Shown here: positions 827 to 35,520 of the stretch, one piece after another | How the letters are laid out: every line of letters starts with the position of its first letter | Numbering within the stretch: position 1 is the stretch's first letter | Source: Escherichia phage OSYSP | Sequence record: MF402939 | Length of the DNA stretch: 64,000 bases | Direction: 5' to 3' (one strand) | Made by a program: the position numbers and the translations under genes | The notes under the pieces: generated by a model | What the model was told of the DNA's origin: nothing | The model's input: the letters and a program-made list of their open reading frames with translations, nothing else | Databases searched by the model: none

Positions 827-3616
827 GTGTTTTCAATCCTACAAGGTCATGCAGGATTTCATCGCGATTTAGCCACAGGCAATTGGCGAGAAGTTAAGGC
901 AGAAGATTATCTTTTTGCTAAAAGATTTTCCTCAAAGCATCCTGAAGGTAAACCAGCTTCAATGCCCTTCAAGTTTGATGTAATTGACGAAGTTGATCCT
1001 CAAACCCTAGTAGAAATGCTTCCTCTTATGAGACGTTTAACGTCTGATCCTCATATCGTTGCGGTACGAGGTAGATGTCTTGCACCTAAAAATAATGTGC
1101 GACGTAAGAAGGGCAACTTTAATGTATCTAATCCAAGTCATATAATCGCAATGGATGTGGATGGTATTGTAGATACAGGAGGTTGTAACAAGTTTGATCT
1201 TGTTGGCATGGCGCGTCATATTATTAGGATGTTGAATAGTATTAGTGAGGATATGTTTCCTCTTGATGCAGGGTTTATTGCTCATGCATCGTCTTCGGCT
1301 GGACTAAAACCAGGTATCCGAATGCATTTAATACTAGAATCTAATGTTAAAGTTACACAGGGTCAGATCAAGTTCTTATTTACATCTATCAACGAAAGTA
1401 GTAGACAAAAGTATGGTTTTGATATTGCCGACTTAGCTTATTACTCTTCAGTACAGCTCCACTATTTTGCAGATCCTTTATTTATTGATGGTATAGTTGA
1501 TCCGTTTAAAGCGGAGGATGCTTCACGTCTGGTATTTGTTAAGGGTTCTAAAGTAAATTTACCTAATAATCTAGTTGACTATGAAACAACTAGAGGGGAG
1601 TTTAAAGAGGAATTCTACTCTTTACTCGATCAAATTAAAGGTAAAAAAGCTGCCTCTGATAAAGTAGAAGAAACCATCAGCGAGTTAGAGGAAGCTGAGG
1701 ATGGTGTATATCTACGTATTATTCCTAAACTCTATCACCGAGCACTAGAGGATGGTGTAGATTTTGGTTGGCTAGAGAAGGAGATCCGCCCAGCTTTATC
1801 TGAGTATATTGCAACTAAAGATAATAGTCGTAATATTCAGGATTATTTTAATAACGGTCGAAAACAGGCTCTGAAAGCATTTGTTAATAATTCTAAACGT
1901 GATATACCTGATGTTTTAAAAGGTATTCCACTTAAAAAGCTAGAAACTAACTCTCTAGAAACAGATAATTTCTTGAAATTAAACACTGTGCCACCAGAAG
2001 GTTATATGACTTTTGTAAAAGCAAGTCTAGGTACAGGTAAAACCACGGCGGTTGTGCGTTGGTTAGATTCAGGAGTTATTAAAGGTAATTTCTTAGCAAT
2101 TACCAATACTAGGGCACTGGTGTCTTCAAATGCCAAGAAATTTAGTGCAGGACAATATGATAAGTCTGTAGATATGCTTAATTTTAAGCGTGGTGCTATT
2201 GACCGTATGTCCACAACTATCCACTCTTTACATAAGTTTAAGAGTTTTATTGGTCAAATTGATGCAATCTTTATCGATGAATGTGATGCAGTAATGAATG
2301 ACCTATTATTCGCCCCGGTTGTTAAGCAACGTCGTGAGTGTATTCAGGTTCTTCGTGATATTCTTGCAACTGCAAAAATCATTATACTATCCGATGGTGA
2401 TATTAGTGCGGAAACAATTGAAGCATATGGTTCTTTGATTGAGTTCGATAAACCAGTTGCATTCTATAATCATCACCGTAAGATGCTGTCAAAAGCCCAC
2501 GCTTATGAGTTTCCAGATGAATCCAGTATTTGGGTTGCACTTCAGACTTCTCTAGAGATGGGGGAGAAATCTATTCTAGTATCTGATTGTGGCCCTGATG
2601 AGCTGAATGAGAAGGGTATGGCACTGCGTCGTAACACGGGTGCGTTAGTTAAGGAAATCCATTCAAACTCTACCTCAGATGTGGATATTCGACGTATTCT
2701 GGATTATACAACTAATGAGCTAATTGATCAACAAATTGATTGCTTATTATGTAGTCCATCCGTAACGAGCGGTGTTGACTTCAACTATTTTGATAACGTA
2801 TTCGTTATTACTAGAACCAGTAATCAAGCGCCAAACATGCGTTTTCAAGCAATCAGGCGCGACCGTGGTGCTCAGAATATCTATTATTTTATTGATAAAT
2901 CCACTAGTGGGTTCTCTGCAGGTTCTGAACAATATAATATTGATGAAGGTTGGCTGGAGTTAGCACAGCAATTATACGCACGTCGTAGAGAGCTGGAATC
3001 TAGAAACTATACTAGTACCTTACGGTATTACTTGCTTGATCAGGGTGCAACTATTGATATTTTCAGCGAAAGCTGGGGAACTATTGAAGGTGCTGGTAAA
3101 GAATATACAGAAGAGCGAATCAAAGCTATTCTGCATTCAACTCCAGATTATTGTGCCCCACGTCATGCAGATGCATATGAAGCTAAACTACTTCTTGTTC
3201 GCTATTATCATCTTGAGTCTATTAAAGATGTAACAGTTGAGCATGTTGAACAATATATCAAAGATAAACCGAATGATCGAGCTGCATTCTTCCATAAGAT
3301 GCACGAGATGTTCTGGGAAGATATTAAAAAGTGTTCAAATGTGACCATTAAACCATTCATAGAGGCTCTGAAAGGTAAGAAGAAAGACTTCTTCCTTAAA
3401 ACAGGTCAGAGTGCTAACCCAAAATATGCTAGAATGTATCTTGGTATGATGGGTATTGGTAAGGATATGAACACTGAAAATATCGTAGACTGGTATAGAA
3501 CCTATTGTAAAATCGAGTGTATGCCAATTCCATATAAGTTCATGACTGACGAGGAAAAACATATGCACGATGAAGCAATGTCAGAGCTAGGTGCTAGAAA
3601 TGACAGTGAAGAATAA
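827..3616 (+). CDS. Large P-loop NTPase, putative replication-associated helicase or initiator; probable GTG start at 827 after an AGGAG Shine-Dalgarno
   Basis: Walker A (GTGKTT) and Walker B-like (IFIDECD) motifs in the ORF translation; position at the head of the replication module; ORF-track start at 749 looks like translated leader. Confidence 0.6.
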   Translation: MFSILQGHAGFHRDLATGNWREVKAEDYLFAKRFSSKHPEGKPASMPFKFDVIDEVDPQTLVEMLPLMRRLTSDPHIVAVRGRCLAPKNNVRRKKGNFNVSNPSHIIAMDVDGIVDTGGCNKFDLVGMARHIIRMLNSISEDMFPLDAGFIAHASSSAGLKPGIRMHLILESNVKVTQGQIKFLFTSINESSRQKYGFDIADLAYYSSVQLHYFADPLFIDGIVDPFKAEDASRLVFVKGSKVNLPNNLVDYETTRGEFKEEFYSLLDQIKGKKAASDKVEETISELEEAEDGVYLRIIPKLYHRALEDGVDFGWLEKEIRPALSEYIATKDNSRNIQDYFNNGRKQALKAFVNNSKRDIPDVLKGIPLKKLETNSLETDNFLKLNTVPPEGYMTFVKASLGTGKTTAVVRWLDSGVIKGNFLAITNTRALVSSNAKKFSAGQYDKSVDMLNFKRGAIDRMSTTIHSLHKFKSFIGQIDAIFIDECDAVMNDLLFAPVVKQRRECIQVLRDILATAKIIILSDGDISAETIEAYGSLIEFDKPVAFYNHHRKMLSKAHAYEFPDESSIWVALQTSLEMGEKSILVSDCGPDELNEKGMALRRNTGALVKEIHSNSTSDVDIRRILDYTTNELIDQQIDCLLCSPSVTSGVDFNYFDNVFVITRTSNQAPNMRFQAIRRDRGAQNIYYFIDKSTSGFSAGSEQYNIDEGWLELAQQLYARRRELESRNYTSTLRYYLLDQGATIDIFSESWGTIEGAGKEYTEERIKAILHSTPDYCAPRHADAYEAKLLLVRYYHLESIKDVTVEHVEQYIKDKPNDRAAFFHKMHEMFWEDIKKCSNVTIKPFIEALKGKKKDFFLKTGQSANPKYARMYLGMMGIGKDMNTENIVDWYRTYCKIECMPIPYKFMTDEEKHMHDEAMSELGARNDSEE

Positions 3617-30918: not shown

Positions 30919-33900
30919 TTAAGAATTTCCTAGTGTTTTTAGGCTAGCACCATTCTCATTCAGAGCTAGTTCTACTGCATCCCTCAGAGCACCGCTATTA
31001 CTAGAGGCGAACTCTCTAAAACTAGCAGCATCCATAGCACTAATATTCAGGATGATAGGTCTTCCTGAGATTGAATTAGAGGAATTTTTTAACTCATCAT
31101 TAGGTGTAGCTTTCATAGGAATCATAGGTGTAATTACTTCTGTACCATGTTCTCCCATCTGGTAGCTAACCCCTGGGTACATATTACCACCTTCGGCACG
31201 AGGCACAAATGAATTAGCATTACCAATACCTTGATCACCACGTATATAGGATAGTTCCCCAGCGTTAGCAGACATAGATACATCAATGTTCTTCTGACGC
31301 TCTCCAAGAGTTAAATAACTAGTAGTATCCGCTCCAGAATCTGCAATACTTGACATACTAGAGGCAGAGGATGCCTGCGCTAATGCCAGAGCACCTGCTA
31401 ATCCTGCCGCTACCATCAGAGGGATAGAGAACGGGTATGGTACAGCTGTTGCTGCCTGCATAACTGCTACTGCAGTTTGGATGATAATCTGCTTCTTAGC
31501 TGCATCTTGTTGAATCTTCAGCTTTTCAGCTTCTAGCTTCTTCAATTTAGCTTTAGATGCTTCTGATTTACCATCACGTTTCTGCTCCGCTGCGATAGCT
31601 GCATCAATAGCACTAACCTGCTGACTAGTACTGTATTGAATCATAGAAGCCACAGTTTGCATACCAGAAGCAATCAAGGAAGTAGTATCTAGAGATCCCT
31701 GAGAGAACTGAATCATAGCATTAGTTAAGTTACCCATACTTTGTGCTACTGCAGTTGCTTCAGAATTTAGCTCAGATAGCTTAGAGATTGCTTGGTCATA
31801 AGAAGCCATTCTATTTTGCATATCAGCAAAATCTTTATCTTCTCCAGATAATCCCGTTGTAGGAGTGTACACAGCACCTACAGAGGATCCTACCTGTTGT
31901 TGCATTTGAGCATTACGTTGCGCCGTTAAAGCAGACATTTGAGCCCTTGTCTTAGCTATTTCAGCATTCCAGCGCATTTGCTCGTTAGCATTACCTTTGG
32001 TAAGTTCTTTCATCTGAGTATAAAAATCTAACTGCATTTCCATTTTTTGCATTTCCCCTGCCAGAGGGAACATGGAAGTTAGAGTATTTTCAAAGGCTTC
32101 TTGCCTTTTACTGGTCATTTCAGCTTGCTGATCCTGACGGAATTTCCATATTTCACGTTCAATTTGAGCTTGAGAACGTCTAGACTGTTCAGCCTCTTTC
32201 TGTTTATCAGCCTGTTTTGTATACCATTCGTACTTCTCTTTTTCAATGGTCAATTCAAGATTTAACTGTGCTAGACGATACTGAGTATCTGTCATAGTAC
32301 GGTTATTTAAGAGAGCTATCTCACGATCTACACCAAGAATTTTATCTGTGTAATCCTTGACCTTCTTCTGAGCTTCCATACCCTGATTAGTAAGTTTAAG
32401 TTTCTCCAGCTGAATTTTTTCAATTTCTTTCTCAACAGCTTTATTTCCCTGGTTTGTTTGAAGAACACGGCGTAAAGCAGCTTCTTGCTCTTCTAACTGT
32501 TGGAGTTCTAAACGTCTACCAGCTTCCTGAGCCTTTTCCTTATCCTTAGTTTGATTATACACATCAGCTATTTTCTGTTGAACTGCTAACTGATTTTTAG
32601 TTTCATTACCAGTTAGTTTAACATACTCAGATAGAGCCTGAGATGCAGTTTTCATTTCAGACAGGGTGTTATAACCCAGGTTAAGGTTTTTAACATATTC
32701 ATCGGCACTCTTACCGGTACCTAAGGATAGAGATTCTATATTTTTTATAGCATCTGCCAAAGTAGCACTAGTTTTAGCAGCAGTATCTGTATTATGAGCA
32801 ACGTTCTGTATATCATTAGCTAAGTCACTAGCCGTTTTCTTAGTCTGATTGTACGCTTTCTGCTGCTCAGTTAGTCCTTTTAATACAGTAGAGTTAAAAT
32901 CGTATACAGCATCAGGATCAGTAGTATCTCTCTGTAGATTAATTTGCTTCTGAAACTCTGGACTAGCCTTTGCAGCAGCGGCACCAGCAGCTTGATACGC
33001 TGATTTCCAAGCATTGAGATTCTCTGTAGAATCCTCTACTTCCTTACCAAGTCTAGTTACTTGTAGACCCATAGCTGCAGTTTCTGCTACAAATTGCTTA
33101 TTGGCCTCCGAAGCACCTGCTGCTGCAAGACCAACAGGAATACCTTCACCAACTTGACGTATAGCTAATTTTGTATAGAAATCTGCTTGTTCCATTCGTT
33201 TATCAAACTCAGATTTTAGCTTATTACGCTTATCAAGAGATTCCTTATACATATCTAGAGCTTTATTATAGCCTTCTTCAGAAGCAGCTAAACTTAAAGC
33301 AACAGCACCAACGTTGGTAGGGTCTATCTGTCTATTAGTTTTTTCTTGGGCCCTAGCTGCTTCAGCAGATATAGAAGCCTGAGATGTATAAAATACTGTG
33401 TTGATAGCATCAATTACTGGCCCTAAATACTTAGCAGCAGCTTGTTGTATTTTTCTTAGTGCAGCATCTGCATTAGCAGCAAATTGCTCCCACGGAGTTG
33501 CACGTAGTACTTCATCTAGGTAGCCAAAACGCTTAGTAGATTCAGCAATTACCGCGTTAGCGTATGCTTGTTGCTTCTGGAAAGTGGTAAGACTATTAAC
33601 ATTATATGTTATACCTGTGTTTGCAGCATTTAACTGTTTAACATAATCAGCGTATGCATCATTAAGACGGATGGTGACACCCAGCTCATCCAGAAGTTCG
33701 ATTTCTTGTTTAGATACGCCCTTAATTACACGGTTAAGTGCATCAGTCATATCAACGCCAAGAACAGCAGCCGCACGACGAGCTACTAAACCAAATTTAT
33801 TAAGTTGTTCGGCATCAAATCCATAAGCAGATGCTGAAGATGCCTGTCTCATTGCTTCCTCAAAAGAAATAGCATATCCAGCAGCTTCTTGTAGTGATCT

Positions 33901-34602
33901 AGCAAGGGTCTGAACAGGAGTACCTGTCTGAGTACCTACTATAACACCAAATTTTTCTAGACGATTTAGCTGATCACCTAGTTTAAGTTGTTCAAATGCT
34001 GATTGCAAAACGAAGATGTTGGAAGCAAGAGCTGCGTACATAATAGGTAGACTACCACCGATCTTAGCCATTGCCGCAAAATCACGAGTTGCACCACGTG
34101 CTGAACCAGAAGTATTACCAATAGCTCTAGAAGCTCTACCAGCGGCACCAGCAGTATCATTAAAACCCCTAGCTGTGCCACCTAATGCTCTATTAGTATC
34201 ATATAATCTATCCTGGACTTTTTCTGTTGCAGCTGCAACATCATTACCCATTGTTTTAACAGATCTAGAAACTCCATCGAATCCAATTTCTAGTTTATCT
34301 GTTACTTCAATAAGCTGGATAGCTAGGTAATCTAGTTTATCACCAATATCATTAATAGATTTGGTGATACCAGCCATACCCCTACTAGCTTGCATTTTAG
34401 TAAGACTTTTTGCTGCTCTGTCTGCTGCCCTCTCAATGGAATAAAGAGTTTTGGGCATTTTACCTAACTGCTCATTTGTTAGTTCGGAAGCAGCAGCAGC
34501 ATTTTCCAACGCATCAGATACGTTTTCAATAGACTTTGCAGTACGAGTTGCCCCCTTCTGTTTAACGTCTATTAGTAATTCTCGTATTAGCTTATCAGTC
34601 AT
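30919..34602 (-). CDS. Tail tape measure protein (pb2-like, 1227 aa)
   Basis: Length; long coiled-coil regions; position between chaperone genes and Dit. Confidence 0.85.
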   Translation of the reverse strand: MTDKLIRELLIDVKQKGATRTAKSIENVSDALENAAAASELTNEQLGKMPKTLYSIERAADRAAKSLTKMQASRGMAGITKSINDIGDKLDYLAIQLIEVTDKLEIGFDGVSRSVKTMGNDVAAATEKVQDRLYDTNRALGGTARGFNDTAGAAGRASRAIGNTSGSARGATRDFAAMAKIGGSLPIMYAALASNIFVLQSAFEQLKLGDQLNRLEKFGVIVGTQTGTPVQTLARSLQEAAGYAISFEEAMRQASSASAYGFDAEQLNKFGLVARRAAAVLGVDMTDALNRVIKGVSKQEIELLDELGVTIRLNDAYADYVKQLNAANTGITYNVNSLTTFQKQQAYANAVIAESTKRFGYLDEVLRATPWEQFAANADAALRKIQQAAAKYLGPVIDAINTVFYTSQASISAEAARAQEKTNRQIDPTNVGAVALSLAASEEGYNKALDMYKESLDKRNKLKSEFDKRMEQADFYTKLAIRQVGEGIPVGLAAAGASEANKQFVAETAAMGLQVTRLGKEVEDSTENLNAWKSAYQAAGAAAAKASPEFQKQINLQRDTTDPDAVYDFNSTVLKGLTEQQKAYNQTKKTASDLANDIQNVAHNTDTAAKTSATLADAIKNIESLSLGTGKSADEYVKNLNLGYNTLSEMKTASQALSEYVKLTGNETKNQLAVQQKIADVYNQTKDKEKAQEAGRRLELQQLEEQEAALRRVLQTNQGNKAVEKEIEKIQLEKLKLTNQGMEAQKKVKDYTDKILGVDREIALLNNRTMTDTQYRLAQLNLELTIEKEKYEWYTKQADKQKEAEQSRRSQAQIEREIWKFRQDQQAEMTSKRQEAFENTLTSMFPLAGEMQKMEMQLDFYTQMKELTKGNANEQMRWNAEIAKTRAQMSALTAQRNAQMQQQVGSSVGAVYTPTTGLSGEDKDFADMQNRMASYDQAISKLSELNSEATAVAQSMGNLTNAMIQFSQGSLDTTSLIASGMQTVASMIQYSTSQQVSAIDAAIAAEQKRDGKSEASKAKLKKLEAEKLKIQQDAAKKQIIIQTAVAVMQAATAVPYPFSIPLMVAAGLAGALALAQASSASSMSSIADSGADTTSYLTLGERQKNIDVSMSANAGELSYIRGDQGIGNANSFVPRAEGGNMYPGVSYQMGEHGTEVITPMIPMKATPNDELKNSSNSISGRPIILNISAMDAASFREFASSNSGALRDAVELALNENGASLKTLGNS

Positions 34603-34614
34603 GTTTTATTTTTC

Positions 34615-34652
34615 CCAATAAAAAAGGCTCTGGGCAAATCACCCAGAGCCAA
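34615..34652 (-). terminator. Hairpin plus T-run (GGCTCTGGG ... CCCAGAGCC, TTTTTT) followed by ATTGGGAAAAATAAAAC and the tape measure start codon
   Basis: Read from the minus strand. Confidence 0.5.
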
Positions 34653-34685
34653 GCCTCATCGTGGAACGCCCATTGGAGGAAACTT

Positions 34686-35054
34686 TTACCGTGCACGAGA
34701 TCTAGCATGTGGCTTAACGTTAGGAATCCTTCCGTTTTGCGGTTTATGCTTCTCAGCACGCTTACGTGCAGCATCTACAGCTTTAGCATCAAATATATTG
34801 ATAATGTGTAGAACAAATTCTTTTTCTATAGGATCAGTAATCCCATAAATATCAAATAAAACACCTAATGCAGCCTTATCCTTACCTATAAAAATAGGAA
34901 AGTCACCCGGTATGAAACAGTCAATCAGACTGTTATAAATATTCATACTAATAGATACAATAGGTGGAAAATCTTCGAGTTCAACAGGCATAGCCTTTGG
35001 ATCAGGTTCTATACCCATTGACTCGCAAAGTATTAAATATTGTTGTTTAGTCAT
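34686..35054 (-). CDS. Tail assembly chaperone, downstream ORF (possible frameshift partner)
   Basis: Position between tail tube genes and tape measure; its frame is open upstream across the preceding stop. Confidence 0.45.
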   Translation of the reverse strand: MTKQQYLILCESMGIEPDPKAMPVELEDFPPIVSISMNIYNSLIDCFIPGDFPIFIGKDKAALGVLFDIYGITDPIEKEFVLHIINIFDAKAVDAARKRAEKHKPQNGRIPNVKPHARSRAR

Positions 35055-35115
35055 TTTAGATGCTGAGCTTTTAATACATTTGTCTGCAAAATCAGCAACA
35101 GCATCTAGGAGTTCT

Positions 35116-35520
35116 TTACGCTTTTGGGCTACGAAAAGTGTCTAAGTGGAACACTGTCTGGTTGATCCAAGAATCAAACGCAGCAGAGTTCTGCATGAGC
35201 ATTACAGCGTTATCGCGGCTAAAAGGAACTTCAGTAGCAGGATCAGCATCTGTTTCAATCAGCATCAGTTTTTCAACGTCACCAACAGTTAAGCCAGTCC
35301 AGCCTTTAATAGCTGCGTCAACAAAGGCTTCAATGAACTTATCGTCATCCTGTACCTGAATCAAAGTACCGTTAACCCATTCATCGCGTTTAGCAGAGGA
35401 AATAACACGTTTAGAAGTAGCACGAGACATGTAGTTAAGTTCTAATTTAAAGTTCGGCATACCTGGGTAGGAAAGAGTAATAGTACGAGTATCAAGAGTA
35501 ATATCTTTTAAATTAATCAT
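35116..35520 (-). CDS. Tail assembly chaperone (134 aa)
   Basis: Position; acidic small protein upstream of tape measure. Confidence 0.45.
   Translation of the reverse strand: MINLKDITLDTRTITLSYPGMPNFKLELNYMSRATSKRVISSAKRDEWVNGTLIQVQDDDKFIEAFVDAAIKGWTGLTVGDVEKLMLIETDADPATEVPFSRDNAVMLMQNSAAFDSWINQTVFHLDTFRSPKA

Follow-up and report, generated by a model that had tools for sequence, protein, structure and literature searches.

Introduction

Tail assembly chaperones are marked by a conserved -1 frameshift (Levin 1993; Xu, Hendrix & Duda 2004, as summarised in PMC5009743). In phage lambda, the tail tube and tape measure genes flank two open reading frames (ORFs). Standard decoding yields the short product gpG, a shift a few codons before the stop codon yields a minor fusion, gpGT, and the second ORF carries no signals for its own initiation. 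The G:GT ratio in lambda is 30:1 (PMC5009743), and the corresponding shift in the chaperone of phage Mu occurs at 2.2% (PMC3498833). Here we describe the chaperone locus of Escherichia phage OSYSP as contained in a stretch of 64,000 nucleotides (nt) of its DNA (record MF402939), which we call the window. The stretch comes from a T5-like siphophage (Tequintavirus) and is 98% identical to Tequintavirus genomes. The locus shares with lambda the position of the two ORFs, a short product made by standard decoding with a minor fusion predicted to arise when ribosomes shift a few codons ahead of the stop, and a second ORF without start signals. It differs in that the proposed shift goes to the +1 frame, with no X_XXY_YYZ heptamer leading into the T frame, and in that 61 nt part the first stop codon from the annotated second ORF, so that the pair looks non-overlapping to annotators. 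Comparison with related phages leads us to propose that this is very probably a tail assembly chaperone of the lambda G/GT type whose fusion is made by a +1 programmed frameshift at UUU_CGU.

Chaperone pairs with the same logic and a non-canonical direction of shift are found in Mu (-2), the archaeal virus HSTV-2 (+1 predicted), and many actinobacteriophages, although their families and sites differ from those described here (PMC5009743, PMC3498833, PMC10274946). Forward shifts account for 350 of the 2,718 annotated slippery-site cases in SEA-PHAGES genomes (PRFect paper, PMC10274946). An earlier note on this DNA, made from the sequence alone, called the direction of the shift atypical; it is indeed unusual for chaperones but has these precedents.

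The closest parallels to the site itself lie elsewhere. In the PA-X product of influenza A, tRNA-Phe slips from UUU to UUC in UCC_UUU_CGU at about 1%, as proven by mass spectrometry, and the authors note, without an explanation, that related viral sites favour CGN as the A-site codon (PMC3498833). UUU_CGN is also the prevalent, predicted +1 motif in amalgaviruses (PMC5052127). The OSYSP locus has the identical core, UUU_CGU, at the 5' edge of its overlap, with CGN preferred over other CNN codons, and the low efficiency to be expected would suit chaperone biology. By contrast with those viruses, its ribosome and host are bacterial, its E-site codon is variable, and CGU is not rare; the class has been proposed as active in eukaryotes. 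In bacteria, UUU_Ynn is particularly liable to +1 shifting (PMC5009743). Error sites with UUU_Y and the Yersinia YopN-TyeA hybrid share with the OSYSP site the slip of tRNA-Phe from UUU to UUY, the bacterial ribosome, and the lack of an adjacent stop codon (PMC5009743). Those are error sites or a secretion-system hybrid, whereas the T5 site is fixed family-wide in genes for structural assembly. A literature search for UUU_CGN-type strings returned no phage paper among the best-ranked 40 matches. The locus appears to be a genuine, conserved recoding locus of a known functional kind, and its proposed PA-X-like +1 signal is, as far as we found, undescribed for this phage family.

Results

The second reading frame crosses the stop codon of the first

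The two small ORFs that the earlier note saw between the tail tube genes and the tape measure gene are borne out by the ORF list and the gene order. The features of the junction are as follows.

35520..35116, minus strand: upstream chaperone ORF, 134 amino acids (aa), gpG-like, homologue of T5.143, made by standard decoding.
35054..34686, minus strand: downstream ORF, 122 aa counted from its ATG, with a gpT-like domain, homologue of T5.142; matches PHROG 3914 and PHROG 313.
35141..35116, minus strand: overlap in which the frame change would occur, between the +1-frame TAG (35144..35142) and the zero-frame TAA, from three-frame translation.
35136..35131, minus strand: proposed +1 shift site UUU_CGU, zero-frame Phe129-Arg130, conserved as TTT_CG[T/A].
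35115..35055, minus strand: 61 nt annotated as an intergenic spacer; +1-frame coding sequence with peptide ..KELLDAVADFADKCIKSSASK.
complement(join(34686..35132,35134..35520)), minus strand: predicted fusion coding sequence (CDS), 277 aa, with the G domain at residues 1-129 followed by VAQKRKELL...

On the minus strand the junction reads CAC TTA GAC ACT TTT CGT AGC CCA AAA GCG TAA, followed by 61 nt and the ATG. Relative to the upstream ORF, the downstream ORF is read in the +1 frame, which stays open across the upstream TAA (35118..35116), as the earlier note had said; the open extension before the ATG is 29 codons long rather than about 19. The +1 frame is open from 35141, right after the TAG at 35144..35142, giving an overlap of 23 nt. 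In the window alone this extension is not beyond chance, because at least 29 open codons precede the first ATG in 7 of the 58 window ORFs of at least 100 aa, and the probability of 29 codons staying open is about 0.14 as calculated from the stop frequency in +1 frames. It gains significance only through the relatives of the phage.

Overlapping frames are found throughout the family

We analysed 76 loci from IMG/VR and annotated phage records, some of them found by single-protein scans with Vibrio and Pantoea queries, which added few. Relatives from Proteus, Aeromonas, and Providencia match by tblastn and lie outside this sample. The second frame overlaps the 3' end of the first in every one of the 76 loci, at +1 in 50 and at -1 in 26. 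The 50 loci with a +1 arrangement represent 13 lineages, with protein identity to the window down to 28%. Among them are Tequintavirus, Epseptimavirus (including Yersinia phage phiR2-01), Eos, Pectobacterium Hongcheonvirus, Klebsiella Sugarlandvirus, Pantoea AAS21 and Erwinia KEY, and Enterobacter KKP_3711. The rest are five Vibrio genera or groups (PG07, Ceto, JSF12, VPG01, D51, D28) and one metagenomic contig (L070). When the hypothetical fusion was used as a tblastn query it matched 908 phage records, and each of the full-length matches listed was in two pieces, as expected for a frame change.

All 26 loci with a -1 arrangement are metagenomic and form one clade in a neighbour-joining tree. 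Each has exactly one canonical heptamer, and this heptamer lies at or next to an invariant Phe codon: G_GGA_AAC on the Gly-Asn codons just before the Phe in 15 loci, and A_AAT_TTT on the Asn-Phe codons in 11. In this clade the Phe codon is TTT or TTC and is followed by Thr or Ser. Because this sister clade has canonical heptamers at or next to the same Phe, a frameshift fusion appears to be a conserved trait of the chaperone family. The family would thus retain the fusion while relying on either of two recoding signals placed at this codon or beside it. The members of the clade (L030-L054 and L068) are IMG/VR contigs of up to 102 kb from T5-sized phages; no cultured member with more than 60% identity was found in the phage collection.

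The spacer is coding sequence and the downstream start codon is not conserved across genera

We compared the 20 codons between the upstream stop codon and the ATG in 32 unique T5-like sequences. Variable sites at positions 1, 2, and 3 of the +1 codons number 6, 1, and 17 (20 sites each). The ratio of nonsynonymous to synonymous changes (dN/dS) is 0.053 in the spacer, compared with 0.053 in the upstream ORF and 0.061 in the downstream ORF. The peptide read from the +1 frame is KELLDAVADFADKCIKSSASK in the window, STLLKEVEKFAERCVKSSASK in DU_PP_V, NRLLKEIDAFAERCVKGGDSK in Klebsiella phages, and ARLLDEVKKFAERTIKGSASK in Eos, and it is recognisably kept in Pectobacterium, Klebsiella, Pantoea, Enterobacter, Eos, and Yersinia phages. 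The spacer is coding sequence in the +1 frame and is under purifying selection. The earlier note had recognised neither this nor the UUU_CGU site, which lies four codons upstream of the CCCAAAA heptamer to which it drew attention.

Signals for initiation on the second ORF are lacking in the window. The +1 extension before 35054 has no ATG, GTG, or TTG, and the 15 nt before the downstream ATG have no match to a Shine-Dalgarno sequence; the first ORF has GGAG. The ATG is swapped for ATA, GTT, CTA, TTC, TTT, CTT, or TTA in Klebsiella, Pantoea, Erwinia, Enterobacter, Eos, and Vibrio phages and in the metagenomic contig L070. Three loci (L063, L070, and L071) have no canonical start codon at all in the second frame, and in different records the gene callers have placed the start of the second ORF at non-homologous positions. 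The position of the downstream Met thus seems to behave as an internal hydrophobic residue. Together, a coding spacer, the lack of initiation signals, and an unconserved ATG suggest that ribosomes must enter the +1 frame from the upstream ORF.

These data bear on the simplest reading of the records, in which the two ORFs encode independent chaperone proteins without recoding and translation of the 122-aa ORF starts at its own ATG alone. Nearly all GenBank and RefSeq records that we checked give two separate CDS, and the Tequintavirus, Epseptimavirus, and Hongcheonvirus groups keep the ATG. A genome announcement (PMC6256483) has a passage, citing Zivanovic 2014, according to which T5 has no predicted frameshift signal. 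When T5.142 is expressed alone, it is folded and active and triggers the Schlafen defence (PMC13056530); that study treats T5.142 as a free protein and makes no mention of frameshifting. Set against this are the purifying selection on codons upstream of the ATG, with a peptide kept across genera, the missing Shine-Dalgarno sequence at a start region that is also covered by a hairpin, and the loss of the ATG at the homologous position in all Vibrio phages and the other lineages listed above. Two wholly independent proteins are therefore unlikely.

The hairpin in question has the following position.

35107..35057, minus strand: predicted hairpin in the spacer with a 9-bp stem, UAGAUGCUG (35107..35099) pairing with CAGCAUCUA (35065..35057).

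The 5' arm starts 8 nt downstream of the UAA, and the 3' arm reaches to within 2 nt of the ATG. The minimum free energy is -20.7 kcal/mol (z -2.8). A compensatory change from U-A to C-G is found in two relatives and a U-G pair in two more. The hairpin is confined to the T5/Epseptimavirus group, with none in the Klebsiella, Pantoea, and Vibrio relatives. Its role may be to block internal initiation or to bring the stop and start codons together. The latter would allow termination followed by reinitiation, with ribosomes restarting at the ATG 61 nt past the UAA, an explanation that the placement of the stem and its partial support from covariation favour. Reinitiation would explain neither the codon-phased conservation of the spacer nor the overlap of the frames and the presence of the motif in lineages without hairpin or ATG. 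We regard it as very improbable as the route to the second product and at most a second route in the T5 group.

UUU_CGU is the shared candidate site within the overlap

The overlap holds TTT_CG[T/A] in frame at every one of the 50 loci of the +1 group, and so in all 13 lineages. In the window, two zero-frame codons of the overlap can re-pair after a +1 shift, TTT_C and AAA_G. Shorter overlaps in relatives narrow the choice: Vibrio phage D28 (AAC AAC TTT CGT TAA) has 11 nt, Eos and VPG01 have 14 nt, and KKP_3711 has 17 nt. The move from UUU to UUC is the only perfect +1 re-pairing in D28, Eos, and VPG01, where no -2 re-pairing exists, and TTT_C is likewise the sole re-pairable codon in the loci L060, L063, L064, L072, L075, and L076. 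Phe129 is invariant in our alignment (A1), where the G domain has just eight such residues. Its codon in the +1 group is always TTT, though TTC makes up 41% of Phe codons in the window. The Arg that follows is found only in the +1 group and is always encoded by CGN, though AGR makes up 36% of Arg codons in the window. Several Vibrio phages have UUU_CGA, and CGA is rarer than CGU. The E-site codon is ACU in the window and varies among lineages (ACU, ACC, ACG, AAC, GGG, UUG, CAC). The stimulatory UCC is not found in the E site in the window, and only DU_PP_V has UCC_UUU_CGU. The upstream fold is not significant (z -1.5). A separate observation is that in-frame TTT followed by a pyrimidine is depleted in the window ORFs of at least 120 aa, an uncurated set (91 observed, about 140 expected), which is consistent with general avoidance of a +1-prone tetranucleotide.

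A Mu-type -2 re-pairing at UUU fails because the preceding bases vary (CU, CC, AC, GG, UG, CG). Transcriptional slippage was considered and rejected, since the T-run is only 3-4 nt in all lineages and a run of that length is too short for it.

The other re-pairable codon in the window points to an alternative in which the fusion arises at the A-run near the stop codon (YCA_AAA_G), by a -2 shift or by a +1 move of tRNA-Lys from AAA to AAG. Such a fusion would have a junction reading DTFRS[P/S]K(K)RKELL. AAA_G can be re-paired after a +1 shift in the T5-like group, and a -2 shift is documented for the Mu chaperone, as cited in PMC3498833. This alternative also has a precedent in the databases, where 1 of about 20 annotated records has a joined chaperone CDS. 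That record, of Salmonella phage Shivani (KP143763; L074, 1198..2029), comes from a phage 98% identical to OSYSP and joins the same two ORFs into one 277-aa frameshift product. Exact sequence look-up identified the protein (AJA73579.1 / YP_009194776.1) as a construct with -2 after AAA, reading ..TFRSSK and then KRKELL... Its join therefore lies at the A-run TCA_AAA_G, a site that the family does not conserve, in contrast to the site proposed here. The join is unmentioned in the genome announcement, was kept by RefSeq, and was not carried over to the other records examined. The family does not keep the A-run as a shift site: it is AAG_T in phiR2-01 and AAA_C in Klebsiella phages, and the overlap lacks it in PG07, D51, D28, Eos, and VPG01. 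A -2 shift would in addition put CAA in the P site, a first-position mismatch for tRNA-Lys. Every lineage has UUU_CGN. The comparative data do not support the Shivani join or the A-run as a family-wide site, and we consider a fusion made there improbable.

The heptamer pointed out in the earlier note is the remaining candidate signal.

35128..35122, minus strand: C_CCA_AAA heptamer, incidental; C_TCA_AAA in T5 and many relatives.

It is in frame, as reported, but ends one codon before the stop codon rather than two. It could drive a -1 shift adding a short C-terminus (..SPKSVKNS), as it is canonical and in the right phase in the window. The earlier note was correct that the -1 frame ends after about 7 codons (CCC AAA AGC GTA AAG AAC TCC TAG), and this frame is shut after 7 codons in all T5-like loci. 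The resulting tail of 5-6 residues is unconserved as protein, and no stimulatory structure lies 5-9 nt downstream. The heptamer is also polymorphic, with TCA in T5 and in 15 of 32 unique close relatives. We take CCCAAAA to be incidental because T5 itself has CTCAAAA; as a shift signal leading into a dead-end frame it has next to no likelihood.

Both ORFs match one chaperone family

The upstream ORF matches PHROG 313 (tail assembly chaperone, 258 positions) at positions 12-139 and the downstream ORF matches it at 170-258. The downstream ORF also matches PHROG 3914 (E 1e-56). When the predicted 277-aa fusion was compared with PHROG 313, it gave one continuous match of residues 1-262 to profile positions 12-258 (E 1.4e-53). 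Thus, both ORFs appear to be parts of one chaperone family. In fold, the 134-aa ORF most resembles the HK97 chaperone 2ob9, and next YqbN 3klu and 3fgx. Neither ORF matched a family in a search of a local copy of Pfam, and a sequence search of the PDB gave nothing meaningful. A search of a large protein database with the 277-aa fusion gave no match despite 1,180 candidates, and a search with the 134-aa ORF gave only 12 proteins. The locus therefore has the gene position, the conserved overlap without start signals, and the gpG-like homology and fold of lambda-type G/GT pairs. A canonical -1 heptamer leading into the T frame is absent from the window, where the T frame is +1, and present in the metagenomic sister clade.

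Neighbouring genes

Genes of the chaperone locus are all on the minus strand. A 465-aa pb6-like tube ORF and a 299-aa p140-like ORF come first, followed by the 134-aa and 122-aa ORFs, the tape measure gene, and a pb9-type distal tail protein. The 299-aa ORF matches the T5 p140 baseplate-tube family (PF23779, E 3e-140).

34602..30919, minus strand: tape measure gene, pb2-like, 1227 aa; homologous records annotate it as tape measure or pb2.

The chaperone presumably acts on this 1227-aa tape measure protein as its client. Shigella phage SSP1 and Salmonella phages Th1 and Spc35 share 98.4% identity with the region, and a megablast search with it gave matches in 443 T5-like genomes.

Between the chaperone genes and the tape measure gene is a strong hairpin resembling an intrinsic terminator, with an 11-bp stem (7 G-C) followed by T6 (34620..34650, minus strand). 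The T5 record labels the homologous hairpin as a terminator, an odd position just upstream of an essential late gene. A 59-aa ORF (34595..34774, minus strand) that overlaps the terminator and the end of the T ORF has a counterpart in some relatives, a short CDS for a hypothetical protein (e.g., I14 CDS0021 and GEC_vB_N7 gp170c), and is probably an artefact of gene calling. T5 (L055, 2430..3182) and Vibrio relatives (L060-L064, about 2040..2850) have an extra ORF of about 250 aa that separates the chaperone genes from the tape measure gene. The T5 copy, T5.141, resembles an RB49 ORF; the OSYSP window has no such extra ORF. We found no tRNA genes in the window. T5-like phages carry a tRNA cluster, which must sit outside it.

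Discussion

The suggestion in the earlier note that the chaperone pair is expressed as a G/GT-like fusion through the +1 frame has gained strong comparative support. We propose slippage of the P-site tRNA-Phe because TTT_CG[T/A] is conserved and UUU_CGN is a known +1 signal. Most ribosomes would make the 134-aa G-like protein and stop at the UAA. A minority would pause when tRNA-Phe occupies the P site on UUU (Phe129), with CGU in the A site. The tRNA would then re-pair from UUU (35136..35134) to UUC (35135..35133), its better-matched codon, and decoding would resume at GUA (35132..35130) in the +1 frame, running through the spacer and the 122-aa ORF to give the 277-aa G-T fusion. By analogy with lambda, the G part may bind the tape measure protein and the T part may recruit the tail tube protein, with a low shift frequency setting the G:GT ratio. 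The expected sizes are about 15 kDa for the G-like protein, about 31 kDa for the fusion, and about 14 kDa for free T. A +1 shift at UUU_C predicts the junction peptide DTFVAQKRKELL (DTFVAQK..), a -2 shift at UUU would give DTFFVAQKRKELL instead, and any fusion would contain the spacer-derived peptide ELLDAVADFADK.

Several points weigh against this proposal, beginning with the reported lack of a frameshift signal in T5 and the activity of T5.142 expressed alone, both described above. The downstream ATG is retained in the T5, Epseptimavirus, and Hongcheonvirus groups and also in the -1 group. Since the ATG is kept in several groups and T5.142 alone is folded and active, the T5 group may make a separate T product besides the fusion. 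At the site itself, CGU is the commonest Arg codon in the window ORFs (319 of 737) and occurs at 20.2 per 1000 in E. coli, so that the usual rationale of a slow A-site codon is not obviously valid. Features of the prfB type are lacking, as CGU and not a stop codon follows UUU and the upstream sequence GUGUUCCACUUAGACACU has no Shine-Dalgarno-like element. There is no suitably spaced 3' stimulatory structure in the window, where the sole significant hairpin starts 26 nt past the shift site. In-frame TTT_CGN occurs 7 more times in other window ORFs (8 observed, 11 expected), which means that the motif alone can give only low-level shifting; elsewhere in the window, in-frame TTT_CGT opens into +1 tails of no more than 22 codons in every case. 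Part of the conservation of TTT_CG could be protein-driven, since Phe-Arg is also conserved in the zero-frame protein. Finally, the support for the fusion is comparative throughout and its product is a predicted one.

With TTT_CGN elsewhere in the ORFs, the efficiency of the shift is probably low, which fits the need of G/GT systems. We infer the occurrence, direction, exact site, and efficiency of the shift, and the roles of the two domains. The frame arrangement, the conserved motif, the coding spacer, the missing initiation signals, and the shared family homology are direct observations.

A broader interpretation, to which we incline with some reserve, is that UUU_CGN, defined in influenza A, amalgaviruses, and other viruses of eukaryotes, is a cross-kingdom +1 signal that serves on bacterial ribosomes as the programmed site of the whole T5 family (more than 900 genomes), that a -1 heptamer gave way to this +1 tetramer at the same Phe codon, and that T5.142 occurs naturally as part of a rare fusion. 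T5 serves as a model siphophage, with active research on its tail assembly, and the literature we read describes its chaperone as lacking a frameshift signal. If our proposal is true, hundreds of genome records carry two separate genes and a false intergenic gap of 61 nt, and UUU_CGU would give a simple annotation rule for Demerecviridae. The locus would offer a bacterial system for investigating the link between UUU and a following CGN in +1 signals of this class, which the work on influenza PA-X left unexplained, and a natural switch between -1 and +1 recoding within one protein family. It would also mean that the natural trigger of pSlfn5 is a rare 31-kDa T5.143-142 fusion and not a free 14-kDa T5.142 protein, which bears on what the Schlafen defence senses during T5 infection.

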